Assembly (NCBI RefSeq): GCF_902728285.1
Contig: NW_027104472.1
Location: 935,681-999,680 of the forward strand
DNA length: 64,000 nt
From: Clytia hemisphaerica
Lineage: Eukaryota
Direction: 5' to 3'
A program made the position numbers and the translations under genes. The notes below the pieces were generated by a model that saw nothing but the letters and a program-made list of their open reading frames with translations, was not told the origin of the DNA and made no database searches. This document shows positions 1 through 64,000 of this stretch, one piece after another; positions within the stretch are counted from its first letter, which is position 1; the number at the start of each line of letters is the position of its first letter.

Positions 1-55
1 AAAGACCGTTGCATTTTCACGAAAACTATATTTATTTAAAGGAAAGGGAAATCTT

Positions 56-217
56 ATGTATGATAAGAAGATAGACGCAGACCCTGCTTCTGTCCATGTG
101 AAGTGTGAAGAAAATAACAAAAAAGTCGCTGAGATTCTTGAAAGTCTAAAGAAGGCACTTGCAGATACGAAAGAATGCTATCAACATTGCCAAAAAGAGA
201 TGGCTACTGCCAAAATG
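56..217 (+). CDS. Putative exon of an upstream gene (coiled-coil-like sequence MYDKKIDADPASVH...EMATAKM). Donor GT at 218.
   Basis: Open frame ending at a consensus GT donor. Phase is compatible with the 397-480 exon. No homolog recognised. Confidence 0.3.
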
Positions 218-396
218 GTATTGTTTATTTTTTTAGTCTTAAAAATATTGTAATATTAGCTGTCCACCCTTCCATTTAGGTTTTATTAAACAAAATATTG
301 ATATCTAATATAATCTTATAGTATTCAACCCTTTCTCTAATTATTTTCACTTCTGACAGAAAGATAATAATTTTTATTTGATAATCTTTGTTTTAG

Positions 397-480
397 CCTT
401 CAATTGAGGATATTGCAAAAGGAAACACAAAAAAAGAGCCTGCTGGTGAACCATCTGAGGAGTACAAAACTTTAAAAAAA
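397..480 (+). CDS. Putative exon (PSIEDIAKGNTKKEPAGEPSEEYKTLKK) of the same upstream gene
   Basis: ttttag acceptor at 395-396 and gtaattt donor at 481. Phase 0 to phase 0. Confidence 0.3.
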
Positions 481-795
481 GTAATTTTTTCACTGACAAA
501 CTTTCCGTACAGGGTCTGAATTTTCACTCAATGTCTTTAAAAATGTTGTCAGTGACAATCGAATTGTGCTTTTGAGTTCTCAAATAATAATATACATGGC
601 ACACTATCACATAATCATTCACACCAGTAGCTAAGGGCAACTTAAAACCTGACATTATGAAAAAACCACCTGACAATAGCACTAGCCAGGCAAAAATTGA
701 GCAAATTTTTATTGAAGCAATATATTGTGATACAGTCACCAGAAATGATTCTGTGTGCTGTTAAATTTGTATATCTTTCTTTCTAGCAATTACAG

Positions 796-831
796 GCCAA
801 AAATGAAGATCTACGAGTCATCATTGATGAA
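796..831 (+). CDS. Putative short exon (AKNEDLRVIIDE) of the upstream gene. An alternative acceptor at 787 would add Q-L-Q.
   Basis: cag acceptor and gtacgt donor at 832. Confidence 0.25.
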
Positions 832-1759
832 GTACGTCACATTTTCAGTGACATAAATCAGCTTAGTACAACGGTTCCTTATTGAGCATTTTTGAATGGT
901 CTTTTTCCTCATACAACATTTTGTTGAGTGGTGGTAACTGTGTTGACGTTGTGGAAGCTGTGATGGCTGAGCCTGATGATACGGTATTGGAGATGCGAAC
1001 CAATCCATCACCTATGAATTACTTGTATAATTAATGCAACACTAAGAAAATATTGACACAATTGTTTGTAAATCTTGCAAGTTTATAAACAGATATTTTG
1101 ATAAGTTAAATGGTTACGACTGAATTGTGAAGTGTTGGATTGCATGTTTCAAATATTCTTTTATTGATTGCTTGATAATATCCAAGATATGGTGAACATA
1201 GCAGTGGTAATCACAATGATATTCATAGAGCAGAATAATTGTAAGGCATTTGAGTTGGGAAGAAAATGTGAATTTATCTTTTGTAATTATAAGGTGACGA
1301 TAGAAATGATTATTGTCTTATGATTATTTTCTACTGCTCCCCAATGATTTCCTCAATTCTAATTCATACATAACACAAATGAGTGACAAATAATTACAAC
1401 AATTTAGCGTTACCAGCAAGTTACTGAAAATTTTAGAAGCCCTGAAACTAGTTCATGACTTAATTTTTTCGGTCCTTTGAACAGGGCTTGAAATAACGGT
1501 CGGACATCGGACATTGTCCCACCCAAATTGCTCCTTGTCCGACCCAAAAATCATATTTTTCAAGCTAAAGCAACCGTGATCTGATCTGACATTTTGTCTT
1601 GTCTAACCCACTATTTTGAGCCTTGTTTGAGTGATTTTTTTTGATTTATTTTCACATTCTTCATTCACATTACTACGTTCTTTTTAGACACGGACAAAAA
1701 TAAAAACAAAAAGATAAAAAACTTTGAAGTAGATTTTTTTCATCTATTATCTGGGCCTT

Positions 1760-1872
1760 ATGTTTGGTGTTTGCAAAATTGATCAATCGATTCCTATCGA
1801 GCATTTGGATTATAAATTCATTGGCTCTTGTAAAGATGTTGAATTGCTTCAGAAACTTGTCAAAATTTTAAG
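1760..1872 (+). CDS. SPAG1: SPAG1 ortholog exon 1 with the start codon (MFGVCKIDQSIPIEHLDYKFIGSCKDVELLQKLVKIL-R)
   Basis: First in-frame ATG after a TAG at 1730. Matches the human SPAG1 N-terminus 'IPIEHLDFKYIEKCSDVKHLEKILCVLR' (remembered, not searched). Donor GT at 1873. Confidence 0.75.
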
Positions 1873-2171
1873 GTATATTGACATTTCATGATTCAATATA
1901 TTTTCAAAATAGTCAGAGCATTCAATGTCAATTGAATATAAAGAATCTGGCTAGGAAAAGCTAGCAAAAAGTATTTTGGGGATAGAAATCCATTGATAAT
2001 CTACAGCTCTTTTATCTGGTCAACATTGAATAGTAATAACCTCCAATATCTTCCACTCTGCTCTCTGACACAAATTCTCTTCACATAATCAAAACGTTTG
2101 GTTATTTTATTGACACCTTGTAGCAATCAAATACATACTAACTTGCAATAATCTTCTTTGTTTTGTTTCAG

Positions 2172-2246
2172 GTCTGGCGAAGAAGGAATATATCCAGATT
2201 TGACTCATTTTGCAGAAGAACAATTGAGAAAGTTCAGCCCCAAAAA
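2172..2246 (+). CDS. SPAG1: SPAG1 exon 2 (SGEEGIYPDLTHFAEEQLRKFSPK)
   Basis: cag acceptor at 2169-2171 and phase continuity (AG+G=Arg). Matches human 'SGEEGYYPELTEFCEKHLQALAP'. Donor aa|gtaact. Confidence 0.7.
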
Positions 2247-2285
2247 GTAACTTTTTTCTCTATTTTGATTAAAAATCAATATGAA

Positions 2286-2786
2286 CAGGGCTCGAAATAG
2301 CGGTCGGACATCGGACATTGTCCGACCCAATTGCTGAAATGTCCGACCCAAATCGATTCTAGTCGGACATCATGTCCGACCCAATTACTTTCGGTGCCTT
2401 CAAAAAATTTGTCAGATGCGTTGTGAAATTTCCAAAAGAAATATTATAATTTACATAGAATTAGTAACTTCTTTATTTACACACAAAAACTCTCAAAGTT
2501 GCGATCATTAGTGTTAGATATTAATTTTGTGTGATGCTTTTTCTCAACAAATGAAAGCATGCTTCAAGTAAAAATCATGGGCTTCTGACCATTAATTGGC
2601 ATTTTTTTAGCTTCTTCGTGATCAATGTAAAATTCTATCAGAAGCTTGTATTATATTTGAAATATACCCCACAATCGGACATGTCCGACCCATTTTACTT
2701 TAAAAGCCTTAGGACATGTCCGACCCAAATCAATTTTTGATCAGACAATGTGTCCGACCACCTAAATATCGTTATTTCGAGCCCTG
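2286..2786. mobile_element. MITE (about 500 bp). TIR 'ACAGGGCTCGAAATA(G/A)CG' with internal 'gtcggacat/gtccgaccc' repeats. Partial second copy at 1481-1560.
   Basis: Terminal inverted repeats are read directly from the sequence. Flanking 'atga' on both sides. Confidence 0.7.
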
Positions 2787-3429
2787 TATGAAACCATAAC
2801 CTATCGCTTTTGCAACTCTAAAATACAAGAAAAATTTCCATGTTGAGATTTTCTTTCCTTGAATTATCTTGTTGTCTTCTGCTCCAAGGTTTATTTAAGC
2901 TCAACCACTGCCTTTCTAATTCAGATTTACTTGCAACAGCAAAAAATTCTGGGTTCCATAGTACAATAAACACTTTGACATCAGCAAAAGCCAAATTTAC
3001 GTCAACATGTTTGCGTCGGTAATAGCCGAATGCCAACATGAATTAGAATGGCTGAACCAGTGTAGAGCATATCTTCATGTTTGGCACCTTTCTTTTATAA
3101 GAATATACTTTATAAGTATATTGGCCGAAAAATGAAGAATATGCTAAGAATACCACCATCATGGAATTTGACAACTGAACCTAAGAATTCCATTTTCGGG
3201 CATTTTACCTGTAATTTGCTAATTATTCCCCAGCAATGCTATAAAAAATTTTTTGTTTCAGGTATGCATTGCATGCTAGATTCAGGGTAGGTTTGGATCC
3301 TAACCTAGAATACTGTAAGAGTTCTTCAGGAAGATTTTTTTTAACAAAATGTTAAGAATACCATAATGAAATGGAAAAACACAATTTTTATAATATGAAG
3401 CGTGTATAAAAGAATTTCTTCATTTTCAG

Positions 3430-3514
3430 TCCTCTATTGGAGAAAGTCAATCCGGAGAAATCAACTTCTGAACTTGGGAATGAAGAGCAACAAAATATTG
3501 TCAACGACTTAAAG
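3430..3514 (+). CDS. SPAG1: SPAG1 exon 3 (N-PLLEKVNPEKSTSELGNEEQQNIVNDLK)
   Basis: ttttcag acceptor and gtaggt donor. Phase is consistent. A missed exon between 2247 and 3429 cannot be excluded. Confidence 0.55.
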
Positions 3515-3727
3515 GTAGGTATAGTTCCACCAATCAGATGCAATTCTCATTCCTATTTCATTTTATGACAACATGCTAGCCTGGCACAAATGTTTGTGAA
3601 TTTGATAGATTTTTTGGAAATTATCTGTCAAAAATAGTGTTTCAACGTGTGTAATGGAAAAGGTAAAGACAGGTACAGGTAAAGCCAGGTCAAAAACAAG
3701 TAACTCTTTTTTTGTTTGATTTAACAG

Positions 3728-3829
3728 GGGTTTACCAAAGACACAAAGACTTTACAGAATGGAAATAAAGATAATCTGCCACCTGTTCGAAATTCAAAGA
3801 CCTTAAATGTAGATGCTGACAAAGAAAAC
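3728..3829 (+). CDS. SPAG1: SPAG1 exon 4 (GFTKDTKTLQNGNKDNLPPVRNSKTLNVDADKEN)
   Basis: The 'DNLPPVR' motif is conserved in human SPAG1. aacag acceptor and gtgag donor. Confidence 0.7.
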
Positions 3830-4257
3830 GTGAGATTTTTTGATTAAATTTATGAACAAACCTGATGACAAACAATCTGAAACATAGGACCTAATTTACA
3901 TTTTGAGATTTGAAATCAGAGCAAAACTGATTATGTGATTGCCGCAGGTTGTTAATTTTTTTACTTCCAAAAATCTGCAGTGTAAAATTGCACAAGCGAG
4001 GCGAGCTTTGAGCTGTATGAGTATGACAGGTAAAAGAGAAGTCAGACAGGTGCTGTTATTGTTTGGGCAAACTTTGTCTCTGCACCATCAACTTTGCTGT
4101 ACTTTAGTCTGAATTTGCTTTAATCGAAAAAATATAGTCACTTCGTCAAAAATTGTGTCACCACCAGGCTCAATTGGATTTGAGTAACTCATTTATTACC
4201 CCCAATGAGTTTACTGCTTACCTATGACCTCATTTTCCAATTTTACACTTTGTTTAG

Positions 4258-4459
4258 AAACCTGAAGTAAATAAAAAGAGCGACAACAAAAGGGTGACAC
4301 CACGAAGTTATGATGAGTGGAGTAAACTTGATAAGGAAATTGAAAATTCAACAAATGAAGACGACATAGCATCATCAAAAGGAGCCAAAGCTAAAATGAA
4401 TGATACTGGAAAAGGCTCCTTGAAACCAGACGAGATGATTGGAAAATTAAATACAAAAG
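4258..4459 (+). CDS. SPAG1: SPAG1 exon 5 (KPEVNKKSDNKRVTPRSYDEWSKLDKEIEN...GKLNTK)
   Basis: 'PRSYDEWSKLD' matches the 'PRDYAEWDKFD' motif typical of SPAG1/RPAP3. tttag acceptor and gtatgt donor. Confidence 0.8.
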
Positions 4460-4710
4460 GTATGTGGAGAGGAATATAGCTATTGCTTTCATGTTATCAA
4501 CTTGACTGTTTCAAATTTCAAAAAATAAGGTCGCAAGATTTCTCTTTGAATCTCAGAACAAAACTTTTGAACTCAACCATGTATTTTTGGACTCGAATAT
4601 TATCCATTGAGTGATGTAAAAATCATTTTCGCAGTACCTTTTTATCAGAAGTTGTAAATTTTCTCCTTTTCGTAACATGAAAATTCAGTCACCATTTTCA
4701 AATCTTTCAG

Positions 4711-4947
4711 ATCTAACCATTGAAGAACTGGCAGAGCAAGCTGAGAAAGAAAAGAACAAAGGAAACGAAGCATTCCGGTCTGGAGATTACAAAGAAGCCC
4801 TTGTCTATTATAACAGGAGTATTGAATTATCGCCAGCTCCTGCTGTTCACAACAACCGAGCAATGGCTTATATTAAATTAGAAGAATATGAAAAAGCAAT
4901 CATAGATTGTAATTGTGTGTTGAAGGATGAGTCAAACAATATCAAAG
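4711..4947 (+). CDS. SPAG1: SPAG1 exon 6, TPR block 1 (DLTIEELAEQAEKEKNKGNEAFRSGDYKEALVYYNRSIEL...CVLKDESNNIK)
   Basis: Canonical TPR sequence, close to human 'EKEKGNEAFNSGDYEEAVMYYTRSI'. GT-AG boundaries and phase 1 continuity. Confidence 0.85.
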
Positions 4948-5298
4948 GTGATTTTAAAGTGCTACATACTTTTTGTTGTTTCACCATTTCTTAGAGTCAA
5001 TGTCTAATACGTTGATGGTTCAGTGAAAAATTCCACGGGACTACAAATTTTAGTTCCTTTAATATAACAATGTTTACTGGCCTATTTCGATTTTTGTATG
5101 TGTTATTGGTATATGTAAATTAAACTAACACTTTACCTCGGGCTATTCGTTTTAGACTTGAAATGGATTCTTGTTGTAGACTGGTCCTTTCTCCAATATT
5201 GACTATCTTTGTAACCCTTTCATTCCCATGCTGTTGGAGATCTAAAGAAGTTTCTGTTAACCTCACCAACATTTTATTTTTATTGTTTTTTATTTCAG

Positions 5299-5405
5299 CA
5301 TTTCTCAGACGTGGTTTAGCATACCAAGCTCTGAAGAAGTTGGATCTGGCTTTGAAAGACTTTACAATGGTCGTGGAAATAGAGCCTAAGAATAAACGGG
5401 GGAAG
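5299..5405 (+). CDS. SPAG1: SPAG1 exon 7, TPR continuation (AFLRRGLAYQALKKLDLALKDFTMVVEIEPKNKRGK)
   Basis: Matches human 'ALLRRATTYKHQNKLREAREDLKKVLDVEPDN'. tttcag acceptor and gtttgt donor. Confidence 0.85.
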
Positions 5406-6093
5406 GTTTGTGTAGCTTTAACTTGCTTAAGTTTAATACACCAATCAACTCTTTTTGCGAATTACTTAGTTTGATTTAGCAGTAGGCTCACCTTGCAAAT
5501 CCTACCATTGTAACACGCATGCGTAATTTGTCGTTCTTTTAAACCGTAGTTAACTCCCGTGATAAACAAAGAGGATTGAATCCTTAAGAGTGGTACAGTC
5601 ACTTTCGGTCAAGGTTATGGACGGCGAAATTTGTCGTTCTTTATGAGATTTGTCGTTCGTTTTGTCTATTTTTAGTAACGCAGGATTTGTTAGATAGGAC
5701 CCCTCTAGAGCCTACAGTATTATATGAAACACCCAAAGTCCTTTTCCAGTCCAGTCGAAACATTGGTTAATATAGAAGAAATGAAATGATATGAATTGGT
5801 CGATCTTTCTATTTAATTTCTAAATCATCACTAAGAAAGTGAAATTGAAAATTCTAAAAGCATTACTTTATCTATACAAGCTCAGTAAAAAAGTTAGAAA
5901 ATTTATGAGATCCACCCAAGGGAATACAAATGATTATCATTAATCTTTTTGATAATTTGAATTTTTAGTTTCTCGAAGATGCACTTTTTCAGAATTTTTT
6001 TCTTCTATATTTGATAAAACACCTAACCACTTCACTATTGTGGTAATTGAACTATTGTGGTAACTTTAAATTGAATCTGAAATTTCCTTTTAG

Positions 6094-6125
6094 GAGCTGT
6101 ACGAATCGGTTTATAAAGATTTGGA
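6094..6125 (+). CDS. SPAG1: SPAG1 exon 8, short (ELYESVYKDL-E)
   Basis: ttttag acceptor and gtaagt donor. Fits human 'TLSEVERDLK'. Phase 2 links to the next exon. Confidence 0.6.
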
Positions 6126-6596
6126 GTAAGTTTTTTAAGAGCTTTTGAATCTTTATAAAAGTAAAGACACTCACTTCAATCATTCAAAGGCAGTTGTAAT
6201 GTGATGACAGAAAATTTTCCTCTTTCCCCCTTTTTGGAATCTTCCTTTTGTAAAATTTATTCAGGTTTCCAGATTGGAAAAGTGACATAATCTATTTCTG
6301 ATTATCATTTCATGATAATCTTTTTATGAATTCACATGTCGCTACCGTCGAGGCAAAAGATCCAATCTCAAAATAAGTGTCTCAGAAAACTTCTTTTTTT
6401 TACTTTGCTAACTTAAAGATTGGAGAGATTGACCCTTTTCTCTCGGCACCTTTTCCACTCCAAGAAAAGGGCAAATGTTACAACTTTGAGTTCGAAAAGC
6501 AAACTAGTCCTAGCTTTCTCAGACACTAATTTTGAGATTGGATCTTTTCCTCGACAGCAGATTCCAAATGTAATTTTTGTTTGAAATTCTTCATAG

Positions 6597-6925
6597 AAAA
6601 CAAAAAGATAGCGGTGCAAAGAAGAAGGGAGGTGGGAAACGCTTAGTGGTGGAAGAAATTGACTCCACTCAAGACGAAGGCGATAGTAAAACAACTGAAC
6701 CAATGAAAAAGTCGCCTGGCAATCGCATTGTCATCGAAGAAGTTGATAGTGTTAGTGCACCTGTGCAAGAAGTTTCTCAAGGCCCTATCAAACCTGCTGA
6801 AGAAGCACCTGAGACTGTGGAGGTTAAAGAGCAACAACAAATACAAGAACCAACCTTAGAATCAACAGCAAGTACGGGTGGAATTGAAACTCAGGACAAT
6901 ATTATGAACCCGCCCTCTTCTGAAG
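6597..6925 (+). CDS. SPAG1: SPAG1 exon 9, acidic linker (EKQKDSGAKKKGGGKRLVVEEIDSTQDEGDSK...NPPSSE)
   Basis: 'KRLVVEEIDSTQDEGDSK' resembles human 'KRMVIQEIENSEDEEGK'. catag acceptor and gtatat donor. Confidence 0.8.
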
Positions 6926-7483
6926 GTATATTTATCAACCAGAATCTGTTTTTGTGGTTTATCAGCGCTTTTTTTGTGCCTGGGGTACAAAAGGATCTCC
7001 TGGAGCAAGGAACTAGACTTACAATTTAATAGGTGCAATGAGACGATAAACTGGCCTAGATATATTTTTCGTACAGGTGCATCTATTTTACTGAAAGAAC
7101 TGTTACTTTTACTGCAGCTGTTGTCTACCCCTCTGCTTTAAACTCTATCAAGGCCTACTCATTACCATCACAACTAACACATTGGCATTCACACTAATTG
7201 TAGTTGATGGAGCTTTTAAACATTCTACCTGGTCTTTAATATATAATTATTATATACATTTATCCGCAGACACGTGTTTCATCCTTCCCAGGACTCATCA
7301 GTGCGGCTCGGGTAAGCGAGCATAGATTGTTGTCACCAGAGTGCTCAAAACACTAAGTGTTGAGCTTCGCATTATCGCTTGTGGTGAACGGAGAAGCAGA
7401 GCTTGCTCCTCAACAGAGTCTATAGAGTGCTTAAAGAACCAAAGTTCTGAGCGTAAATACTTATTATATATCTATGTCTTCAG

Positions 7484-7636
7484 GTACCACTCCAGCACCA
7501 CCACCACCTGTTGTTTATAAAGAATTGCCACAAGATGCATTGAAATGGAAGAACGAAGGGAATGATCTCTACAAGAACGGGCAATACCAAGAAGCGTACC
7601 AGAAATACACTTTTGCTATACAAATTCTTATGGATG
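7484..7636 (+). CDS. SPAG1: SPAG1 exon 10, TPR block 2 start (GTTPAPPPPVVYKELPQDALKWKNEGNDLYKNGQYQEAYQKYTFAIQILMD)
   Basis: TPR sequence with a GT-AG intron. Confidence 0.85.
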
Positions 7637-8049
7637 GTAAGTGTTTTTTTATTCAATCTGTTTTTCAAAGGACTCTCTTCATCTGTCTTCATTAATAAAA
7701 TCTTGTGTGTTTTATCAATCAATCGATGCGATTACTGACTTATGATTTTGTGACTGTCACTATCTACAAAAGGTTATTTCCCCCCCAAAAATCAAATTTA
7801 CGAGGGACCTAAAAAATCGTATAATGGGCAAAAGCCACGTAATGATTGAGCTGGTGAAGCAAATTAGAAAATAAATTTTCCTTTCAAAAGAATGCGAAAT
7901 TACGATACAAGAATCAATAAAAGGCCCTTTTTTTGTCAGAGTGCAAAAATTAAGTTAAACAATTTTAAAGTCAAGGTGCCAAAACTGACTAGGTAGATTT
8001 TACTTCAAAAATTTTTAAAAATCTTATTCTTACTTACTTTCTCATATAG

Positions 8050-8221
8050 ACGTGACGGGGTATAAAACAGCATTGAGTAGTCTCTTCAATAACCGGGCCA
8101 TTTGTCAGTTGAAGTCTGGAAACTGTTCAGAGTGCATCAAAGATTGTACGAAATCTCTTAAATATCTTGCCAACATCAAAGCTATCCAGAGAAGGGCCAC
8201 GGCTTACGAAACCCTAGAAAA
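8050..8221 (+). CDS. SPAG1: SPAG1 exon 11 (DVTGYKTALSSLFNNRAICQLKSGNCSECIKDCTKSLKYLANIKAIQRRATAYETLEK)
   Basis: Strongly matches human 'SNRAACYLKEGNCSGCIQDCNRALELHP...LLRRAMAYETLEQ'. Confidence 0.85.
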
Positions 8222-8790
8222 GTAAGCTTTATTTTAGAATATATCCGCTCTTTTAATACTGAAATTGATTTTCTCCCATTTTTTTTTACTCCCGAAAGGT
8301 CAGGAAAGGTACTTTTACTCAAAAATGAGAAAAACCTTTCGTAATTTTCAGCCTTTTACGTGTAAGTCAACCAATCAAAATATCCGTGTATATGTTTATT
8401 CCAACTAAATACACCTTTGTCATCTTTTCTTAGGTAAGACCAATTCAAGAAGTCTTTTTCTACGGACACTATAGACCCAAACTGAAAATCTAATTGCTCA
8501 ATGTAGCCCACATTTTTTGAAAAGCTTTGGTTACTCCTCCAAGTTGTCGAGGAGTAAACGCCGACTTTAAAAACTGCAATGTTTTCGCAAGTGAAACATC
8601 TTTTTCATAGCGGTTCGGACTTCACTTTCTATACTGTCAATCAGGCTTTAAAATCTTTGATCCTGTCCATCGATCAACGTTTCCTGTATCCCACTTTGTA
8701 TTCTTCCAGAACTTAGTGTAAATGATGTTTTACTTTATTTTAATTTTTACCGGTCGATCCTTTTTTGGATTTTTTCTTTATTTTTTTCAG

Positions 8791-8868
8791 ATATAAGGAC
8801 GCTTATGCTGACTTCCAGATTGTTTACTCAAGGACACGCGACCCTAAAGTTTCTCAAGCTATGTCAAG
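8791..8868 (+). CDS. SPAG1: SPAG1 exon 12 (K-YKDAYADFQIVYSRTRDPKVSQAMS-R)
   Basis: Matches human 'YGKAYVDYKTVLQID...ANDSVNR'. tttcag acceptor and gtaagt donor. Confidence 0.8.
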
Positions 8869-9109
8869 GTAAGTGCTCCCTGATTAATGGACCCGGTTGT
8901 GAAAATGAGGATAGAAAACAAAGAAAATGATGTAAGATTAACTAGTCTGAGGTTCTGAAGTTTAATCATTTTTTAAGTGAAATATTATTACGATTCCAAG
9001 GTAAATTTTAATCACTTTCTTCACCAACATTTAAGCTTTAAAGAGCTAGCCTAAAACCAAGTCTCAGTTATAATTCGATGGTTTCAGTCCTTTGCTCTCT
9101 CAATGGTAG

Positions 9110-9245
9110 GATATCAAATCATTTAAAATCGGACTACGGACGAGACTGGCATGATAAATTACCTGCAAGAGACGCTCTCGATTGGAATGATGCACCCGCT
9201 TCTGCCATAACATCTCCACCGGTGAAAAGTTCTGTCCAAGAAGAG
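9110..9245 (+). CDS. SPAG1: SPAG1 exon 13 (ISNHLKSDYGRDWHDKLPARDALDWNDAPASAITSPPVKSSVQEE)
   Basis: An acceptor at 9108-9109 is forced, because the alternative upstream AG gives an in-frame stop. 'YGRDWHDKL' resembles human 'DGPNWREKL'. Confidence 0.7.
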
Positions 9246-9639
9246 GTTAGTGAATATACATACATGTGTCGCTCTTTAATTCGATTTTCAAGGTGGAATC
9301 AATCGTTTTTTCCTCGAATAAGGGAGTGTACCGAATAATACAGAACGTCGTTTATGAGTGTTTCTTTTTGACGGTGGCTTTTAATATCATCGAATATTAA
9401 AAAAGTATAAAAACGCAGAATTAAAAATTAGAAATTCGTTTTTCATTCGTTTTTAGAAGAGGAAAGGCAAACTTTGTTATTTAAATCTTTCAATTGCGTT
9501 CAGTGGCTTAAGAGTAGCGAAATGTTAAAATTCACTTTTGAAAGTACCCAAAATCACACCAATGGCAGATACTCCTGCTGACCGCTCCTAACTATTCATT
9601 TAACTATTCATTGTAGCTGTTGATGTGTTTTTGTTACAG

Positions 9640-9891
9640 GAAAACACTAAGCAAGCCTCTACTGTGGAAGATCAAAGTCCGGCATTGGTGAAACAGGCAA
9701 ACAATAATATCGCCTCGCAAACCAAACCTGCTGTCGCCAAGGAAGAGAAAAAACCTGAAATAAAACCAGTCGAGGTGAAACACAAAGTGATAGACCAAAA
9801 ACCTGGAGAGAAACCTCAACCAAAACAAGAGAAGACGATACAAGAGCAGTTTGTGGAAACAAAAGAAAAAGGAAATTCCTTTGTCAAACAG
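9640..9891 (+). CDS. SPAG1: SPAG1 exon 14, Lys/Pro-rich linker and TPR block 3 start (ENTKQASTVEDQ...QFVETKEKGNSFVKQ)
   Basis: gttacag acceptor and gtaata donor. Ends with the TPR start motif 'KEKGNxxFKQ'. Confidence 0.8.
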
Positions 9892-10379
9892 GTAATACTT
9901 TTATAAAGAGATCAGGGATGATTTTTTGTAGATTTTCTTCTTTGTCTTGTTGGCCCAGCGCTAAGCGAGTGGGCCTTTCATTTGCAACGTTCTGTTCGTG
10001 TGTACGTGTGTCTGTCCGTCCGTTTTGGTAGAAACGGCGCTTAAAACCAGTAACACACTTTTTGCCGTCTGGACAGGGAAAAGCTTGCTAAAGTCGGATA
10101 CTGGCTATAAAAGATATATTTTCTGATTCCGCGCTCCTTCAAAACAATTTTGAAAACAAAACAAGATGGCGGTCGAAGCGAGGAGGTTGATTCATACTTT
10201 CTTGAACATTTTCTTTGCTTTAGTAGTCGAGAGATTTTCAAACCAAAGAAATTTTGTAAAGATTTTTCTTTATAAACCTTTTTCAACATTCTGCCATTTC
10301 TTATGGTCTTTGCTCAAGTTTTCATAAAGTTTTATGAGTGAAAATTCTACCTTAAATCACTTTCATTTTTAGTTTCTTG

Positions 10380-11110
10380 TTTTCAAAAAGACTTCATTTT
10401 TAGGAAAAAATGGCATCTGATATAGAAATAAATAAACTGAAATGCAGCTCATGTGTAAATTTGAATAAGATTGGAACATTTTTCTTGATGCTACAGAAGA
10501 AAACAGTCACTTCTGGATCTGTCGCTGTTAACAACGGTCAGTCAGTACAGTGGTGGGACGTGGTATGATTTTCAAACCCAACACATAATTATTTCAAGTA
10601 AACTGATTCTGGAATTTGGTAATAGACACTAAAATGGAGCTCATGTGTAAATTGGAACAAGATTGGAACTTTTTCCATGATGCTTCGCGTGCGTGAAAAT
10701 GATTCTTTCTGGATCTGTCTCGTTTGACGAAAGGTGCGATGGCTTGATTTTTCAAACTCGACACAGAATTATTTCAAATAAGCTGATTATGGAATATGTT
10801 AATGGAGACTAAAATGCAGCTCATGTGAACATTTGAACAAGATTGGGACTTTTTTCATGATTCTACACATTAAATAAAATGGTCATTTCTGGATCTGTCG
10901 CATTAAAACGGTCGGTCGGTTTCAAACTCGACTCACATCGATCACATAATTATTTAAAGTATATAAACTGATTCTGGAATCTGTTAATGAACACTTAAAT
11001 GCAGCTCATGGGTAAATTTGAACTAGATTGAAACATTTTTCATGGTTGCAATGCATGAACAGTGAAAATGGTGGATCTGTCACATTAATTGTTAACTCGA
11101 ACATTAATTG
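10380..11110. repeat. Intronic satellite: about 4 tandem copies of a unit of about 185 bp ('gcagctcatgtgtaaatttgaa...')
   Basis: The motif recurs at 10444, 10638, 10816 and 11003. Confidence 0.75.
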
Positions 11111-11800
11111 AATTTTATTAGCCTGGATATGCAGACCGTAAACTATTTCACACTCTAGTTTTTTTAAGATCATTTTTCTGGTTTACGGTCTGGTCCAACT
11201 AACATACCTGCAGGGATATTAAAGCGCCCACTCACTAAGCAGAATATTTGCCAGATTTTTTTATATTTTTCCAGTTTTTCTATGGGTGCGCATAATTTAT
11301 GGAAAAAGCTGACCTTGTGAAAAAAGATAAGCGAATGAAAATGAAAACACAGGTTCATTTCTAAAGAAAATGGCCGCTGGAAAGTAGCCTTTATAAAATG
11401 TGGCTGATGTTTTGATATATATAGTTTAAAGTAGTTTTGAAAGTTTTTTGAGTTTGTGAAAGAGGTTTCATGGCAAGTTAATTATGTGTGTCTGCCTGGG
11501 TTTTCAAAGTTTTGATAGTCTGTCAAACAAGGGTTCACTCAAAGGCAGTATCAAACAAACTGTACCCAGCTTTTTTAGTTACACCGGACTCTAAAATTTT
11601 AGAAACTTTGTATTGTTTTTTTTTCTGAAATTTTGAGTCTGGATACCCAGGCTAGAATTTTATTGGAAAGTTGAATGTAGTTGAAGACATTTTCGCTGCT
11701 AAGGCCTGGTAAAATTTTTTATTGGCCAAAGACTGACGTTACAGGCAAAACTGTAAAGGCAAAAAATGGGTAAAAAAATTAACGATTTTTGAAACTCGTA

Positions 11801-12874
11801 CTCTTGGGTACCTAATAGCTGCCCCCCCCCGCAAATTAATTTTTCGAAAATAATTTTCTACCCAGGACATTCTTATTCCAACCCCCCTGCTTATTGATCT
11901 TTGCGAAAATGTTTTTAATAGTTCCCTCTTTTGTCCTAATTCTGCTGTATTACATGTTTTTTTATAAGCATAATCGCACGATGGGTTATTTTTTCTTATT
12001 TGGCGCGCCCTCAAAGAGAGCAATTAATCGTTAATTGCATCCTGTAGAGAGCAATTAATCGTTAATCACACTCTCCAATGCGGCGCCAATGTTTACAAAA
12101 TTGATTTTATTGTTTTTTCTTACATTTTTTTGTATCGAACGTTTTAATTGCATTCGAAATTTATTTTGTGAGAAAGAAAATCAATAATCAACAATAAAAG
12201 AAAGACATAGAGAGAAGAGAAAAATGTAAAACTCTCAGTGTAATTTCTGTAATTTACTTTCCTAAATGGGAAAAAGTAGTGAAAGCCATTGTGCGATTAG
12301 CTCGTAATCACATAATAACTCGTACAATTCGAAAATTGCACTCGTGATTTTTTTGTTTCGAATTTTCCTCGTCCTTTCGGACTCGGAATATTAATAACAA
12401 AAAAATCACTCGTGCAATTATATTCGAATTGCACTCGTTATCATGTGATTACATATACTAACAACGTTTATAAGCATACCTCAAGACCTAAATTTGTCTA
12501 AAAAATAAGCATATTACTGAGCTTGCTTTTGAGGTGTGTAAGTGAAAATTTTTTTTTCTATTAGAAAACGTAATGACAAATCTTTGTGTCATTACTTATT
12601 ATCCTCATGTATAGCAATGGCAGATTTTGGAAAAATTGGAGACTCGAATTTTTCGGAAAAATAAGCATATGATAAACATACTAAGTCTAAAATATCTCTA
12701 AGCATAACTGAGCTTGTTTCCCAAAAAACATATGCTTATAAAAAAAACATGTAGCCTCCTTTTCAAAAGTTTTCCACCCAGGACATTTTTATTTCAACCC
12801 CGCCACTTATTAAGTTTTGAGATTTTTTCCAACCTCCCCCCCCCAAAACCCCCCAGCTATTAGGTACCCGAGGA
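11801..12874. mobile_element. About 1.07 kb non-autonomous TIR element in SPAG1 intron 14. TIR 'CTCTTGGGTACCTAATAGCTGCCCCCCC' with internal palindromes (caattaacgattaatc).
   Basis: Inverted ends lie at 11801-11830 and 12845-12874. The poly-C plus 'ttattaattttcgaaaa' motif is shared with the 49218 family. Confidence 0.65.
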
Positions 12875-13459
12875 GAGTATTCAACCGGATGAGCCTTATT
12901 CGCCTGTGTAGTCCCGGTTGGTAGGGGACCATTCAATAAAATTTCAAGCGTCTAACCAATGAGAAGTACCGCGGTTATTTTGAAAAATGTTTTCCTGTCT
13001 TCACTTTGATCCATGTCAACGGGGTCATACATTTGCTGTTTTGCACGCTCGATTTCAACACGTTACTTTTCGCTGGGCCTTCACGCCCAACGGGCTTCTT
13101 GTTTTCTTCTTCATTTTTGCCATCATTTTTCATGTTTAAGGTTATACAAAAATTCATTTTGAGGTTTGCCAAATACAATATAACTTCAATAGGAGACGCT
13201 GGCATGATAAAAGATGTATGTGTCTGACAACTAGGCTTTACAGAATTCATGTTTAGGGTTTGCTAAACCTAAGCCTATCAACCCTAGCGGCGCGGTCAGG
13301 TTTTTAGGAGACTAGTAACAAAAATACAAAAAAATATTTTCGACAAAGTCATGGAAACATATTTTTCCTTTTCATCTCAGGTTTCCTAAAATGTCGACTG
13401 CGAGCTATATGTTTGATAGATGTATTCGCATTCTAGCCTATTTATCCTATTTTCTTCAG

Positions 13460-50520: not shown

Positions 50521-51507
50521 TGTAGTAATGAATTTCTTTCGGTGTAGATTTTGGGTTTTTACTATATAGGAATAATTCTTTTAGGTGAGAAATTTGGGCT
50601 TTTATTACTAATTTTTCCGTGTAAAATCTGGGCTTTTACAATGTAATAATTCTTTTTTCGGTGAGAAATCCAGGCTTTTCACTACACATTATTTTTTTTG
50701 GATGACCTGAGATTATCAGTGTTTTGGACGAAAATTCGTACAAGTAATCGTATGGTTTGGAGTGCAATTAACGATTAATCACGAGTAACAAAGGAGAAAA
50801 TAGTAATTTGCACGAGTCCGAGGGACGAGTGCAAATTACGGTATTTTCTCCTTTGTTACGAGTGATTAATCGTTAATTGCACGACAAAACATACGATTCC
50901 GAGGTAATCGTCAGTAAATCGTCAGAAAAGAATAAGTGGACAAAAGTGGCCCCCCGCCGAAGAGTGCAAAAAGTGGTAATAGTGCAATTAACGATTAATC
51001 GCACTCCTCTAAACCAATCAGATTCGAGTAATTTTGCACGGCTGACGATTACGATTTTTATCATATCATCGAGGTACGTGGTAATTTTAATTTTAACAAT
51101 TGTTGAAAAATCTGGTTCTTTACCAATTTATAAATAACATTAATAATTGTAGACGATGTTAAATGTGAAAAAAAGACTTGAATGAAATCGGAAAATGAAA
51201 TAATTTTTCAATCATGTTAATAAAATGTTTTCAGTACACGCTTTTTTTATAAGAATGGTGTAAATCCATTTCATCATGGATATTCTTAACTTTTTTGGGA
51301 AAATCATCCTAAAATATTATTACAGCATTCTTAGGTTAGGATCCTAATTCAGACTAGATTTAGCATTTAGTTCATACGTCTCAAAATTCCATGATGGTGA
51401 TATTCTTAGCATATTCTTAATTTTTTGGCCATTTTTATCATGGACATTCTTATAAAGTGTATTCTTTTAAAAAAGCGTGTATCACGATTATTTATTTTTT
51501 TTATTTA

Positions 51508-52717
51508 TTTATTCATAGAATTATATTTCACAGGTCTATCGACCTCTACGAAATAATTTAGATTTATAAATATTGTCTACTTCTTCATCTGTCGTCCAGT
51601 CGTCAGAAGATATGGGCAGAGAAGACGTTGTTTTGGTCTTTGTCCTAGGTTTTCGAACTAGGCGAATGTTTGCTCTAGGGCTTCCTCTTACATGCCAAAC
51701 GAAATCATCATTTTTTAAATTCATTTTATTCGCCTTTTGGCACATATCTTTAATAATTTTTCTTTCGTTGATGGTGAAGTCGTCTGTAATGCTAAAGCCA
51801 CCAATTTCATTGAATCGTTTCAGCTTATGCAGATTTTGCATTATCCGTTCTTTTTCCTCTATACTTTTTAAGATCAACTTGATTGGACGCCAATGTAGCC
51901 CTTTTCTGTTTTGTCCAATGCGATGATGGTGGGACGGTTTGATATCTTGGACGCCAATGTTACCTAGTATACCTTCAATATCTATTCTACCTTGTTCCTG
52001 TTGTTCCTCTTTGTTATCTACCTCTAATTCCACCATTCCATGTATAATAATATTTCGTTTTCTTGATTCGATGTCTCTGTCTTCATTCTTGTTTTCTTGT
52101 TGGTGTTCTCTCACTGCTGATTTGATATTATCCTTGGTTTCTTAGTTATTTCAGCGTATGTTTTTTCTGATGATTTTTCTATGTAATTCGTCGTTAGCTT
52201 TATTTCTTCTTTTATAATCTGCTTGTTTTTATTTCAAGTCAGCCATCTTATTGGTTAAGATGTTTTCGATATCGTTCTTAAGGCTGCGGTTCTTGGCTAG
52301 CTGGTTGTTGAGCTTTTTAATGACGTCGCCCTTCTTCTCAATCTCCCTCTGCATCATATGATACGAGTTCTCACCTATTTTACTCATTAGAGATCGTGTT
52401 ATCCGCACGCAATTCTGACATAGATATTGTTCGTTTTAAGTGTTGGCAAAAATTTGCAGCTGATAAAGCGGTAATTGTGTGCACTCGTAGTGTACCATGC
52501 GGTGGCATTTTCGGCATTTTAGACGGTTTTGGTCATCGTCATCTGAGCAGGAGGTGAGAGTGCATGTTTGGTTTTGTTTAGCTTCTTCAAATGGTTGTTT
52601 TTCTTGCTTTTTGTCGGTTTTTTCGTTCATGTTTTTGATTTTGCTAAATTTCAACCATTTTTGAAGAACTACACAAAATGCGTGTTGACTAACTGACGTC
52701 AAATAAAAATGTGGAAA
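51508..52717 (-). mobile_element. ORF1-only retroposon, copy B: intact 192-aa RRM/CTD ORF (52114-51536) with the upstream Cys/His ORF truncated (52702-52436). A-rich (TAAA)n-like tail at 51480-51510.
   Basis: Aligns end to end with copy A. The tail in reverse complement reads 'aataaataaataaaaaaaataaataa'. Confidence 0.7.
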
Positions 52718-53097: not shown

Positions 53098-53660
53098 ATC
53101 ACTTTTTGGATTTTGGCTTTATTCAACCTGAATTTTCGAAAATTCCAACCTTGTTTAGCTTGGATTTTGGCTTTTTTCGAACTGAATTTTAAAAAATTCC
53201 AACCTTGTTTAGCTTGGATATTGGCTTTTTTCCAACTGAATTTAAAAAAATTCCAACCTTGTTTTAATTTGGATTTTGGCTTTTTTCAACCTGGATTTTC
53301 GAAATTTCCAACCTTTCCAACCTTGTTTCGTTTGGATTTTGGCTTTTTTCCACCTGGATTTTCGAAGATTCCAACCTTGTTTGGTTTGGATAATTTAGCT
53401 TTTTTCCACCTGGATTTTTGAAAATTCCAACCTTGTTTAGCTTGGATTTTGGCTTTTTTCCAACTGAATTTAAAAAAAATCCAACCTTGTTAAATTTGGA
53501 TTTTGACTTTTTTTCAACCTGGATTTTTGAAAATTCCAAGCCATGGAAAATGCAAAATTTCCAACCTTGGAGAATGTCCCACATTTCCAGGTTGGATTTT
53601 CCATTGGATTTTATCTTTTTTCCAACTAAGAAAACTTGAAATTTCCAACCTTGGAAATCG
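53098..53660. repeat. Minisatellite with a 57-bp unit ('ttggattttggcttttttcaacctgaattttcgaaaattccaaccttgtttagc'), about 9 copies
   Basis: Direct repeats. Both overlapping ORFs (53113-53421 + and 53264-53584 -) are artefacts. Confidence 0.8.
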
Positions 53661-59712: not shown

Positions 59713-59964
59713 ATGTCTGGCAAAAAGCAAATGAGTGCATACAGTGATGCTATCTACACAACTGTTACACCAATATTGGGTGGAGTTGTCGTCATTCTTA
59801 ATTCTCTTGAGTTATTTATGATTATGAAAATGCAGAAAAAGAAACGTTCTAAAGTCACCAATTCCTTCATCTTCATCACAAATTTGTGTGTTTCGGATAT
59901 CATGGTTGGAATTGTGATGATTATATTGAAATCAATGGACCCTTATATGAAAACCGATTTGAAG
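59713..59964 (+). CDS. Class-A (rhodopsin-like) GPCR exon 1: N-terminus, TM1 and TM2 (MSGKKQMSAYSDAIYTTVTPILGGVVVILNSLELFMI...NLCVSDIMVGIVMI...KTDLK)
   Basis: TM1 Asn and the TM2 'LCVSD' Asp motif are present. Donor gtgagt at 59965. The track ORF uses a TTG start; the true start is likely ATG 59713 or 59731. Confidence 0.75.
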
Positions 59965-60429
59965 GTGAGTGTGTTTCTTTACACGATTTTTTTATAAGAG
60001 CATCAAAAACTTTTGAAGCTTTAGGGTGTTCTTAACTTTTTGGGTTTAAAGCCTAAAAATGTTCTTAAAATGTTCTTAATAAGTCACAATCTTGTGACCA
60101 TTTTTATTACCCATATTCCTAAGAAAACGGGTGTTTTTGATTCCACAAAGCCTTTAAATTTTCTTAACTTGTTCTTAACATTTTGGCTATCGAAGCCTTA
60201 TATTCTTATTCCTATTATAGTTTGTTTTTATAAAATGAACTAATTTCAATTTGCTTTAACTTGGTCTCTACATAATAGCCAAATGGAATTCACACTTAAC
60301 TCTAAACATGGACTCTTTCATTCTAGGAGAGTTCTCTAATGGACAGAAGAACGGGGATCGCCCTTTTTTAGAGATGATTTGAAAAATTCGTCGGGTTTAA
60401 TGACCCCCCATTTTATCACCTTTACACGT

Positions 60430-60675
60430 TTTTTTTTTTTTTTTTAAAGAAACCACTTTTAAGAAACTGAGGCTCAGAAGCTAAAAACTTGGAAACACAT
60501 AAGAAATGCTGAGGCTGGAATGAGAAATTCATTTTTTAACTCGGTTTTTAGAACCTTCCAATCTTTGCATGAAAAATAGGCTTTATTGTCAAAAGTTCAT
60601 CTTTAAGGTCCCGATTTCTTAAGAAACATTGAGGCTGCTTGGTAAAACTAGTTTCTTAAAAAAAAACGTGTATGT
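60430..60675. mobile_element. MITE in GPCR intron 1 (TIR 'ACACGTTTTTTTT...AAGAAAC')
   Basis: Inverted ends at 60430 and 60675. Confidence 0.5.
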
Positions 60676-60895
60676 TACAAAGTGCCAAAATTGGTTAAAA
60701 ACCTTCACTTTCCTCGGGATATTTATCAAAATCAGATCAATAGCACTTAATTATGACCTCCCCCCATTTTGTTGATTTTTATCTGGAATATCCAAACCCT
60801 GCTTATTCTACCTCCCCTACAAATAAGCACACAAGAGTACTGGAGGTCAAAACTTTGGCAATAGAGGTTGCTAATAAAGATTTCTTTTTTCATAG

Positions 60896-61122
60896 GACGA
60901 CAATACAGCTAAAGAATTTTACGGTATTTTGAAGCACGTCTTTATTCGCCTCTCATTGTTTATATCCATTTTCAACCTTTTGGCCCTGACGCTGGATCGA
61001 TATTTGGCTATTACCGGCCCCCTGAAACATCGCAAGCGAGGGAAATCATTTGTGTACAAGATGATCGCTGCAGTTTGGTTTTTCAGTTTGGCATGTGTCA
61101 TTCTCATCTATTGTATTTCGAG
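60896..61122 (+). CDS. GPCR exon 2: TM3 and TM4 (DDNTAKEFYGILKHVFIRLSLFISIFNLLALTLDRYLAITGPLKHRKRGKSFVYKMIAAVWFFSLACVILIYCIS-R)
   Basis: DRY motif. cattag/catag acceptor and gtatgg donor. Phase 2. Confidence 0.8.
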
Positions 61123-61500
61123 GTATGGGCTTTAATTGAATGAAGTGAATCTCCTTGGTAGAATTTAAAGCCATTAAATCCTACCAAAGTCACACGGCCC
61201 ATCGCGGTCCGCATACCTTTTACGCAAATGCCGGATTGAAAGTAAAACCGCCAGATTTTCAAAAATGTACCACTCAAAAACAAAGAAATCTCTAGATTCA
61301 ATCCATCATCAAAAAGACTGCTCATTTTAAAGGCTTCACTTTTTCTTGCTTTAGAAAGGTTGAAGATTCACTTCTAGCCCTTTGGGCTTATACTTCATTG
61401 TCTATAACTAGCATGGGGAACACAAATCTGTTCGACTCATGGACATTTTGAATTATTGAAATTTGACGCATCTATAAAAAAATCTGATTTTATTTTACAG

Positions 61501-61732
61501 GTTCGAGCTGAGCAATGTTGAAAAGTACAACAATATGGTGTTCCCAATCTCCTCGTACACAACAAGTGTTGTTTTCGTTTTCTGTTATTCCTTCATATAC
61601 AAGGTGGTCCGCGATTCAAGCACTAAAGACATTGCACGATCTAAGTCAACATATGTGAAAAGTCGCAAACGTTCGTCCACCTCCACTTCCGAACAAACAG
61701 AAAAAGATCAGAAATCACCTATTAAACAGGAG
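61501..61732 (+). CDS. GPCR exon 3: ECL2, TM5 and ICL3 (FELSNVEKYNNMVFPISSYTTSVVFVFCYSFIYKVVRDSSTKD...SPIKQE)
   Basis: ttttacag acceptor and gtaata donor. Hydrophobic TM5 is followed by a basic ICL3. Confidence 0.8.
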
Positions 61733-61844
61733 GTAATATTTCATTGTTTTTGTTACACCCAAATGTCGACTGCACAAATTCTTCACTTTTCATACAAAGT
61801 TCGTAAAATCCTGACATGGTATTTACAATCATAACTTTGTATTT

Positions 61845-62125
61845 ACATGTTTTTTTTTTTTATAAGCATACAAAAATCCGAAAACAGGCTCAGAGATGCT
61901 TAGGTTAAAAGCTTAATGAGGCTGAAAAATGCTTGAGGGGATGCTTAAATCTAAAGCATAAATTCAGGGAAATACTGAAAATCCGTGAAATTCCAGCCAA
62001 AAAAAGCCAAAATCAGGAAAAAAATATTTTTATAGGCTCAAGCAATGCTTGCCATATGCTTAATTTTTCCCCATATCTGAGCCTAGATATGCTTATAAGT
62101 GCAATGCTTATAAAAAAAAACATGT
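61845..62125. mobile_element. MITE in GPCR intron 3 (TIR 'TACATGTTTTTTTTTTATAAGCAT')
   Basis: Inverted ends at 61845-61870 and 62100-62125. Confidence 0.55.
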
Positions 62126-62398
62126 ATGACTTAATTCTTTGACTTTATCCAAAAGGGTGCACGTTTTTAGAAAACACCCATTGTAAACTCACAAACAATA
62201 GTGTTCAATTTTATCATTATTGTGGACAAATATTATAGTTGCTCTTGTTATATGTTGTTATAACCCTTCACTCTGTCTCGAGATACTTAACATATATTTC
62301 CTCTGTTTGACCATGGAGGTAGAAAAACCGGAGTTGAATTTGTCGGTAATTGATCTGATCAATTGATAAGTGTAATAAAATATTAACTTTTTTTTCAG

Positions 62399-62632
62399 AT
62401 AAAACTTTTGCGTCTTGCTATTCTAACTGTCGGTGTGTTTTGCATCTGCTGGCTCCCATTTTCGACATGCAATCTTCTGATCGCCGCTGGCCGCTCGTGC
62501 GGTGGAAAAGATGTTGAGCGGACGCTCTTCACGTTGGCATTTTTCAATTCCGTGCTGAACCCAATTGTTTACTTTTTAAACAATTTGAAATACGTGAAAG
62601 AATTTATCAAAGGAGAAAAGGCAAAGAAGTAA
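62399..62632 (+). CDS. GPCR exon 4: TM6, TM7 and helix 8 (IKLLRLAILTVGVFCICWLPF...FFNSVLNPIVYFLNNLKYVKEFIKGEKAKK*)
   Basis: CWLP and NPxxY motifs. The TAA stop at 62630-62632 overlaps a consensus donor AAG|gtaagt. Confidence 0.8.
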   Translation: MKLLRLAILTVGVFCICWLPFSTCNLLIAAGRSCGGKDVERTLFTLAFFNSVLNPIVYFLNNLKYVKEFIKGEKAKK

Positions 62633-63269
62633 GTAATAATCCTACCTGAAATAACGATGGTGGATTGATGGCCGCCCACGTTAAAGTTTTAAAGAGGATC
62701 GGGCCAATTCCCCATCAGAGAGGCATGATAATGGGTCTTTGATGTGCCGCATCTCCACTCGGGTTCAACGGTCCTTGCGTGTAAACCTGAAAATACTTAG
62801 GTTAGACTGTATGCAATAACCGTCCCCATCCAATTTTCCTTTATCCTTTAACTGCAAATTATGGCCTTAAAAGCAACAAAGCATAATAATGGGCTATTCC
62901 AGAAATAGTCTGTACCCCCTATGTTGAAGAGGTGTGACGTCCAGAGGGTCTGGTTTTTCGAGTGTAAAAATCTAGGGTGGTCAGCAGAATAAGGTGGAAA
63001 ATCCAGGGTGGTCAATAAAACGAGATCCAAAACCCAGGGTTGTGGTGGTGATCCAAAAAGTGAGAAAAAAATTGCAAATGGGTCCTGAAAAGTTGAAAAA
63101 AATCCAGGGGGTCAACTTCCCCAAAAAACCCTCTTCGACAAAGGGGCACAATTATTTTTCAGGAATAGCCTACTGTTGGAAAGCTGAAAATGTAATAATG
63201 TAATCTATTGTTTTCTATGGAAAAGTCCATCATATAGGATTTGTATTACTTCTAATAAAAAATTCTTTA

Positions 63270-63347
63270 TATATTCAGATATTCCACCGTTTCAAGTCGT
63301 ACTCAAATCACCAAAGCAAGATCAGAAACCACGACAACGATGGATTC
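63270..63347 (+). CDS. Possible alternative GPCR C-terminal exon (IFHRFKSYSNHQSKIRNHDNDGFNQS*), used only if the 62629|62630 donor is spliced
   Basis: tatattcag acceptor. Open frame in phase 0. Speculative. Confidence 0.2.
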
Positions 63348-64000
63348 AACCAATCGTAAATCAAGCTTAACTACCTCGCAAATTCCAAATAACAAACACC
63401 CTTCTTATGTGTGTAGCTATGACAACGAAGTTTTTTTGAATGATGAATCCTAATGAGCACTATGTGGGCTGGGTGACCTACTTTCCTTAACCCCAGGAGT
63501 GAGAGTACTAGGGTTGCGAGTCGACGGGGATGTGCAGCTCGACTTTCGACCCTCAAACCCTTAGAGGGACTAAAAAGATTTTGTGAATTTTACTTCCCTT
63601 ATCAGGACTAATTTGACCAATTTTCGATCTTTCCTATTTTTCCGACCCTTAGTGGGACTGAGGTTTGATTTTCTAATTTTTCCAATCCTTATAGGGACTG
63701 CCAGGTTCCCTAAAAGCCCCCCCCCCCCCACCGTGCTTTAACCCCAATGTCGAGGAGGTTGTTCCTGGAAGGTTGAACCGACCATGGATTCTAGCTGAAA
63801 TTGTAGATATTCTCATCGTATTTATATCAACTTTTAATATACTAATAGACGTTATCTTGAATTTAGACTCCTTTTAAAATGTCATTGAATTTTTACCGAT
63901 ATTTCAGAGGTTCAGAGACCATTCTCTGGATGTCGAGGGTTTCAATACAGCTTAATGCCTTATGGTGAAAGACCTGAATAGGTTTATCGACGTCAGTAAA

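Follow-up and report, generated by a model that had tools for sequence, protein, structure and literature searches.

The stretch of DNA analysed here, 64 kb in length and referred to below as the window, holds three complete genes and part of a further gene upstream of them, all on the + strand. Along that strand the order is the 3' end of one gene, a gene resembling sperm-associated antigen 1 (SPAG1-like, 22 exons), a METTL21D-like methyltransferase gene (5 exons), a gene-free stretch and a gene for a rhodopsin-class G protein-coupled receptor (GPCR, 5 exons), and the positions of these and all other features are collected in Table 1. The exons of the three complete genes sum to 4758 bases, corresponding to 7.4% of the window, and the interval of ~29.6 kb between the METTL21D-like and GPCR genes is free of genes and holds a decayed long interspersed nuclear element (LINE), a duplicated 1.2-kb unit, satellites and elements resembling miniature inverted-repeat transposable elements (MITEs). 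As is usual in eukaryotes, the genes are transcribed and the spliceosome then cuts out the GT-AG introns. We are nearly certain that the window is ordinary nuclear DNA of Clytia hemisphaerica, in which three already-annotated, intron-rich genes lie amid mobile-element debris, and the evidence for this comes mainly from what the three genes encode once they are spliced.

The gene models were built from reading frame, GT and AG sites, a simple splice-site score and blocks conserved with L002, a 698-kb metagenome contig (ENA ERZ25072490) found through an open reading frame (ORF) related to SPAG1, P0003. When the exons were joined, single open frames of 999, 213 and 371 amino acids without an internal stop were obtained. 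The 999-residue product is an exact full-length match to XP_066933706.1 ("sperm-associated antigen 1-like"), which corresponds to A0A7M5V3K5 and to the EukProt Clytia entry P004605, and the 213-residue product matches XP_066933657.1 ("protein N-lysine methyltransferase METTL21D-like"), A0A7M5V724 and EukProt P004606 exactly. The five GPCR exons gave a protein equal to UniRef A0A7M5WM37 of Clytia hemisphaerica at 371 of 371 residues (EukProt P004607), and a tblastn search of the window with A0A7M5WM37 returned 100% identity within the exons. The NCBI counterpart of the GPCR is a shorter model, XP_066933684.1, and the name "D(2) dopamine receptor B-like" given there is an automatic label only. 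Compared with the annotated Clytia proteins, the three spliced models thus showed zero amino-acid differences over 1583 residues.

NCBI places the first two proteins and the shorter GPCR model on one contig of 1,497,212 bp, the most likely source of the window. The EukProt numbers of the three proteins are consecutive (P004605 to P004607), in agreement with the order of the genes in the window, and all three Clytia entries carry names of the form TCONS_... For the Clytia gene models, Leclere et al. (bioRxiv 10.1101/369959) mapped RNA-seq data and used cufflinks/cuffmerge and TransDecoder; read by their names, the TCONS_... entries belong to this RNA-seq-derived set, which would give the splicing transcript support.

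Domain searches with Pfam gave the same picture, as splicing improved the E-values by 20-38 orders of magnitude. Single ORFs had yielded only partial matches to TPR repeats, Methyltransf_16 and 7tm_1, the form in which exons appear to a bacterial ORF caller. For the methyltransferase, the best single ORF matched Methyltransf_16 at 7e-8 over 39 profile positions, and the first four exons joined reached 8.7e-46 (156.3 bits, curated cut-off 21; profile positions 6-169 of 174). The last exon (29967-30074), 3.6 kb further downstream, was located by tblastn with METTL21D homologues. For the receptor, a single ORF matched 7tm_1 only at E=0.0048 over 33 profile positions, and a spliced four-exon draft reached 1.9e-29 (103.4 bits, cut-off 30.5; profile positions 10-260 of 260). 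The receptor product also carries LDRY (the DRY motif), CWLP (CWxP) and NPIVY (NPxxY). For the SPAG1-like gene, the Pfam and homologue searches and the alignment of exon junctions used a 968-residue, 21-exon version without exon 15855-15947; this version matched TPR_1 at 8e-40 across three blocks and RPAP3_C at 3.1e-20 over profile positions 3-92 of 92, the latter match spanning three exons.

The introns of the three complete genes are GT-AG in 29 of 29 cases and measure 213-3644 nt (median 528), and the exons measure 32-329 nt (median 117). The donor consensus is A/A/G|G/T/A/A/G/T, i.e. AAG|GTAAGT-like, and pyrimidines make up a fraction of 0.74 between positions -20 and -3 of the acceptors as compared to 0.51 window-wide; GC content is 39.5% in exons and 34.6% in introns. 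An earlier note on this DNA, made from the letters and a list of ORFs, had held that three genes can be reconstructed only as spliced GT-AG models. Three complete genes are indeed present and are obtained only by splicing, as none of them can be read through without interruption (no exon exceeds 329 nt) and the models derived from transcripts have introns as well, but a fourth, partial gene at ~41-885 has to be added.

The exon boundaries also agree with the comparison with L002. This contig carries a Methyltransf_16 ORF 8 kb downstream of its SPAG1 ORF on the same strand, and in a translated comparison window positions 41-26322 were collinear with L002 4732-20417 as 26 short + strand blocks between unalignable sequence. 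At both ends, the tblastn and blastn matches to L002 fall only a few bases from the derived splice sites, and conservation is confined to the exons at both the amino-acid and the nucleotide level. When the three joined ORF pieces of the tetratricopeptide repeat (TPR) gene, i.e. the SPAG1-like gene, were used as a query, the metagenome ORFs P0002, P0003 and P0005 lost similarity just after "...NIK" then G, whereas the cDNA-like relative P0001 carried on past this point. L002 derives from another animal, probably a hydrozoan.

The relatives of the SPAG1-like product support its exon structure in a similar manner. A mini-exon of 32 nt (6094-6125) was predicted from P0001. The cDNA-like relative P0017 (953 amino acids, 55% identity over 100% of the 968-residue query) comes from a 3093-nt contig of run SRR21102235, where a single unbroken ORF encodes it, and in a global alignment with P0017 the SPAG1-like junctions were crossed without a gap in 17 of 20 cases, the other three lying in divergent linkers. 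One of these three, junction 17, has a gap of 24 residues, and at this place lies a 39-nt island with 92% conservation in L002, the only conserved island that seemed to be non-coding. We considered it as a conserved non-coding element and rejected this, as it belongs to exon 15855-15947, which has a clean acceptor and a GTAAGT donor.

The named best matches of the SPAG1-like product are SPAG1 proteins. Among the ten best-scoring matches every named one is cnidarian (Aurelia, going by its EukProt label, Rhopilema, Hydra and Nematostella), and other animals come next. In a neighbour-joining SPAG1 tree (no bootstrap values) the window grouped with Hydra and four further relatives inside Cnidaria, with Scyphozoa, then Anthozoa and then Bilateria following outward. 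The exact matches of all three genes are to Clytia hemisphaerica, which agrees with the earlier description of the window as eukaryotic, invertebrate metazoan DNA with 29 GT-AG introns now placed in it. Clytia and Hydra are both hydrozoans. The suggestion of a cnidarian such as Hydra was thus right at the level of class, the animal being Clytia and not Hydra itself. Base composition points the same way: GC content of the window is 35.3% overall and flat along its length (0.32-0.41), and the published values are 35% for Clytia, 29% for Hydra and 39% for Nematostella (Leclere et al., bioRxiv 10.1101/369959). In GC content, the comparison with cnidarian genomes that had been proposed thus favours Clytia rather than Hydra.

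That the window might be eukaryotic but not metazoan, from a protist, an alga or a giant virus with host-like genes, is the least credible of the readings we weighed. SPAG1/RPAP3-type TPR proteins and Methyltransf_16 enzymes do exist outside animals too, and a fungal Amanita protein (P0143) matched the methyltransferase. Against this stand the exact matches to Clytia proteins, which refute it, the cnidarian identity of all named proteins among the ten best SPAG1 matches and the presence of a rhodopsin-class GPCR with DRY, CWxP and NPxxY motifs.

Two side observations concern sequences related to the SPAG1-like protein. A relative of 1123 amino acids (P0022, ~45-48% identical) is one uninterrupted ORF at positions 10001-13372 of L006, a genomic-looking contig of 21.9 kb (ENA ERZ26222911 ctg941301) on which its neighbours are THAP, DDE_Tnp_4 and YqaJ/Viral_alk_exo ORFs; P0022 may be a retrocopy, or its organism may be intron-poor. 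Furthermore, the 90%-identity cluster of XP_066933706.1 also holds fragments of 35-56 amino acids with bacterial labels, for example NCC62897.1 "MAG: hypothetical protein [Verrucomicrobiae bacterium]" and a JGI entry "pyruvate-ferredoxin oxidoreductase". These fragments are either chained short pieces or animal DNA in metagenome bins.

Once the genes are known, the ORF track of the window can be interpreted. ORFs of at least 60 amino acids were counted with ATG, GTG and TTG starts allowed, and 127 were found as compared to 48 +/- 6 in shuffled sequence; only 18 in the 64 kb reach at least 100 amino acids. Exon sequence is present in frame in 16 of the 127, and all 16 have wrong ends and read on into introns. 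For a further 26 of the 127 the underlying sequence is LINE or belongs to repeats that show up within the window, and 85 lie in non-coding sequence that is unique as judged by self-comparison within the window. None of the 74 ORFs tested from the latter group, namely those not overlapping an exon, had a Pfam match at E<=0.01. One of these 74 nevertheless contains the last METTL21D exon, so a negative Pfam result is not strictly equal to non-coding. Since the genes are spliced, a caller of bacterial style yields exon fragments with intron read-through, mobile-element ORFs and chance ORFs. The statement that the track is mostly artefact was therefore borne out, and its examples of bacterial-style TTG starts were also correct: the ORF at 59620 starts 93 nt upstream of the real GPCR ATG at 59713, and that at 60929 starts inside GPCR exon 2 (60896-61122). 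On the other hand, its claim that most ORFs of 60-200 amino acids fall inside repeats stood in part only, as this applies to 26 of the 127 and a majority is not demonstrable by self-comparison, which misses repeats with one copy in the window.

The ORF counts also bear on whether the window could be prokaryotic, plasmid or phage DNA with the listed ORFs as real unspliced genes. The excess of ORFs over the shuffles is in keeping with such an origin, and so is an ORF of 640 amino acids that is both long and real. This ORF, however, encodes a reverse transcriptase of the eukaryote-type non-LTR retrotransposon kind, and the three genes equal animal proteins only once they are spliced. Prokaryotic replicons have dense unspliced coding, typically above 80%, and exons cover 7.4% here. 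No tRNA gene was found in the window, no Rfam family matched at gathering thresholds, and megablast of window positions 1-25000 gave no match to plasmids. An exact exon 40-mer had no match among the 185,579 species genomes of bacteria and archaea in GTDB, the viral contigs of IMG/VR or the metagenome contigs of JGI, and Pfam likewise gave nothing for the 74 unassigned ORFs examined. We therefore regard a prokaryotic or phage origin as scarcely credible, and the exact spliced matches refute it. The low exon cover and the mere 18 ORFs of at least 100 amino acids also confirm that this DNA is no case for operon, defence-island or CRISPR frameworks.

The spliced Clytia genes leave one closer competitor, in which the window stems from an environmental or host-associated assembly that picked up another hydrozoan or a divergent Clytia lineage from the wild. 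Relatives do occur in environmental assemblies (a marine-biofilm contig, L001, and the ENA metagenome contigs L002 and L006), and the exon 40-mer was unmatched in the DNA collections scanned. The next relative is only 55-63% identical in SPAG1, however, and over the 1583 residues of the three genes not one amino acid differs from Clytia. Polymorphism in Clytia laboratory strains is ~0.9% (Leclere et al., bioRxiv 10.1101/369959). At this level a wild individual unrelated to them would probably differ at some residues. This origin thus appears very unlikely to us, if less so than the prokaryotic and non-metazoan ones. As an observation on such relatives, L001 (ENA ERZ23498700, 783 bp; PRJNA438384, SAMN08714533, marine biofilm metagenomes) carries an orthologous SPAG1 exon with 82% nucleotide identity over the exon only, which points to DNA from a rather close Clytia relative, perhaps a fouling hydroid, among those biofilm data.

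Some points count against the assignment of the window to an annotated Clytia locus. The absence of the exon 40-mer from the collections named above is one of them. Another is the origin itself: the complete agreement over 1583 residues suggests the reference strain and its assembly, and it does so through protein identity only. A third is the partial gene at the left edge, whose start lies outside the window and which may be MED30-like to judge from its sequence; the signals, for the C-terminus of this Mediator subunit, are sub-threshold in both Pfam (Med30, E=7e-4, below the curated cut-off) and PDB (MED30, E=0.27). Against L002 this gene shows two in-frame blocks with 58% and 88% amino-acid identity, and nucleotide conservation over 776-885.

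Table 1. Genes, mobile elements and repeats of the 64-kb window (positions in the window)
Feature	Position	Strand	Description
3' end of upstream gene	41..885	+	two exons, ~41-217 and ~787-885 (approximate ends); stop 883-885
SPAG1-like (sperm-associated antigen 1)	1760..18881	+	22 exons, 999 amino acids; three TPR blocks and RPAP3_C
SPAG1-like exons 1-8	1760-1872, 2172-2246, 3430-3514, 3728-3829, 4258-4459, 4711-4947, 5299-5405, 6094-6125	+	
SPAG1-like exons 9-15	6597-6925, 7484-7636, 8050-8221, 8791-8868, 9110-9245, 9640-9891, 13460-13567	+	
SPAG1-like exons 16-22	14036-14131, 15330-15443, 15855-15947, 17245-17367, 17896-18001, 18249-18323, 18670-18881	+	
METTL21D-like protein-lysine methyltransferase	21060..30074	+	5 exons, 213 amino acids
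METTL21D-like exons	21060-21292, 21915-22025, 22770-22839, 26203-26322, 29967-30074	+	
Rhodopsin-class GPCR	59713..63453	+	5 exons, 371 amino acids, four GT-AG introns
GPCR exons	59713-59964, 60896-61122, 61501-61732, 62399-62628, 63279-63453	+	
LINE (non-LTR) ORF2 copy	45990..48125	+	intergenic; open frame 711 amino acids; listed ORF 46203-48125, 640 amino acids
1.2-kb dispersed repeat, copy 1	30779..31984	-	PHD-like zinc-finger ORF and LINE-ORF1-like ORF
1.2-kb dispersed repeat, copy 2	51507..52709	-	includes 192-amino-acid ORF 51536-52114
Tandem array, ~four units of 180-190 bp	10406..11088		SPAG1 intron 14 (9892-13459); sole intronic array
Tandem array, 45/91-bp unit	41014..41354		intergenic
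Satellite, 124-bp unit x 8.5	43026..44079		intergenic; Tandem Repeats Finder score 1730, 90% matches
Tandem array, 54-bp unit x 7.8	53105..53539		intergenic; source of spurious ORFs 53113-53421 (+) and 53264-53584 (-)
Tandem array, 63-bp unit x 3	58034-58229		not intronic
MITE-like, 194 bp	6355..6548		37-nt terminal inverted repeats, 92% complementary; SPAG1 intron 8
MITE-like, 240 bp	14154..14393		58-nt terminal inverted repeats, 84% complementary; SPAG1 intron 16
MITE-like, 146 bp	22523..22668		perfect 24-nt terminal inverted repeats; METTL21D intron 2
MITE-like, 171 bp	23281..23451		perfect 32-nt terminal inverted repeats, internal 15-19-bp minisatellite; METTL21D intron 3
MITE-like, 221 bp	28503..28723		31-nt terminal inverted repeats, 97% complementary; METTL21D intron 4; AATCTCAG near both ends
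MITE-like palindrome, 112 bp	28751..28862		METTL21D intron 4; kin at 38289-38386 and at 17070-17143 (SPAG1 intron 18)

By self-comparison, repeats account for 16.4% of the window, and dispersed repeated 16-mers numbered 1173 as compared to 2.7 in dinucleotide shuffles; genome-wide, repeats make up ~41% of the Clytia genome (Leclere et al., bioRxiv 10.1101/369959). The LINE ORF2 copy matches RVT_1 at 5.7e-35 (121 bits). Of its endonuclease only the last ~95 profile positions match (Exo_endo_phos_2, E=0.0015, 18.8 bits, below the cut-off of 27.4), and judged from its sequence the copy looks truncated at the 5' end. No second copy of this ORF2 was present in the window, and tblastn detected no intronic fragments of the LINE proteins of the window or of the 1.2-kb unit.

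The two copies of the 1.2-kb unit are 96-98% identical, and the ORF at 31504-31977 matches the Pfam family PHD at 2.5e-4. Neither copy is followed by a reverse transcriptase. LINE copies are commonly truncated at the 5' and not at the 3' end, so an ORF1-like unit without reverse transcriptase is unusual. Instead of the 5' end of a decayed LINE, the unit might represent a young retroelement that is non-autonomous and depends on mobilisation in trans, or else an ORF1 gene family domesticated in Clytia, a proposal that we regard as unlikely.

Local inverted repeats are abundant, with 25 pairs of which many measure 86-320 bp overall, and 27 seed clusters were counted as compared to 2.65 in dinucleotide shuffles. 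MITE-like elements with terminal inverted repeats lie in at least seven places in SPAG1 or METTL21D introns, and each family has at most 3 copies within the 64 kb. The element at 28503-28723 is related to 19293-19437, with which it shares the core AGCCCTTCGGGCT, and a few elements have possible target-site duplications, namely AATCTCAG (28503-28723) and TTAA (20596-20912). In two small MITE-like families, some copies are intronic and others intergenic. The earlier note had described the introns as packed with MITEs, LINE fragments and satellites; this holds for the MITE-like elements and for one array of ~185-bp units, but the LINE copy and the big satellites are intergenic.

In summary, the locus is an already-annotated part of a published model-organism genome and nothing new was found here, while the call made from the letters alone, of spliced genes in a cnidarian, was accurate. 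For triage, the window can be dropped from searches for prokaryotic or viral systems, and any other findings derived from its ORF track are to be taken as exon fragments, mobile-element ORFs or noise.

Several known systems can be set beside the window. Like other non-LTR (LINE) retrotransposons, the intergenic copy has RVT_1, which in this ORF follows a sub-threshold match to the tail of an endonuclease domain, but it differs from them in being without the first part of the endonuclease and without an adjacent ORF1. The vertebrate SPAG1/RPAP3 family acts as a co-chaperone for dynein-arm assembly, and the Clytia product shares with it the three TPR blocks and the C-terminal RPAP3_C, whereas its identity to vertebrate SPAG1 is only ~30-34%. 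The L002 locus has the upstream gene, SPAG1 and METTL21D in equal order and on an equal strand, with matching exon positions such as the shared exon end ...NIK then GT; on the other hand, its exons are only 42-91% identical at the amino-acid level, its introns are unalignable, it is more compact (~15.7 kb as compared to ~26 kb in the window) and intron 9 of the window appears to be absent there. With the annotated Clytia locus no difference was detected at the protein level, and the window agrees with it in its three identical products, their order, a GC content of 35% and its richness in repeats (Leclere et al., bioRxiv 10.1101/369959).

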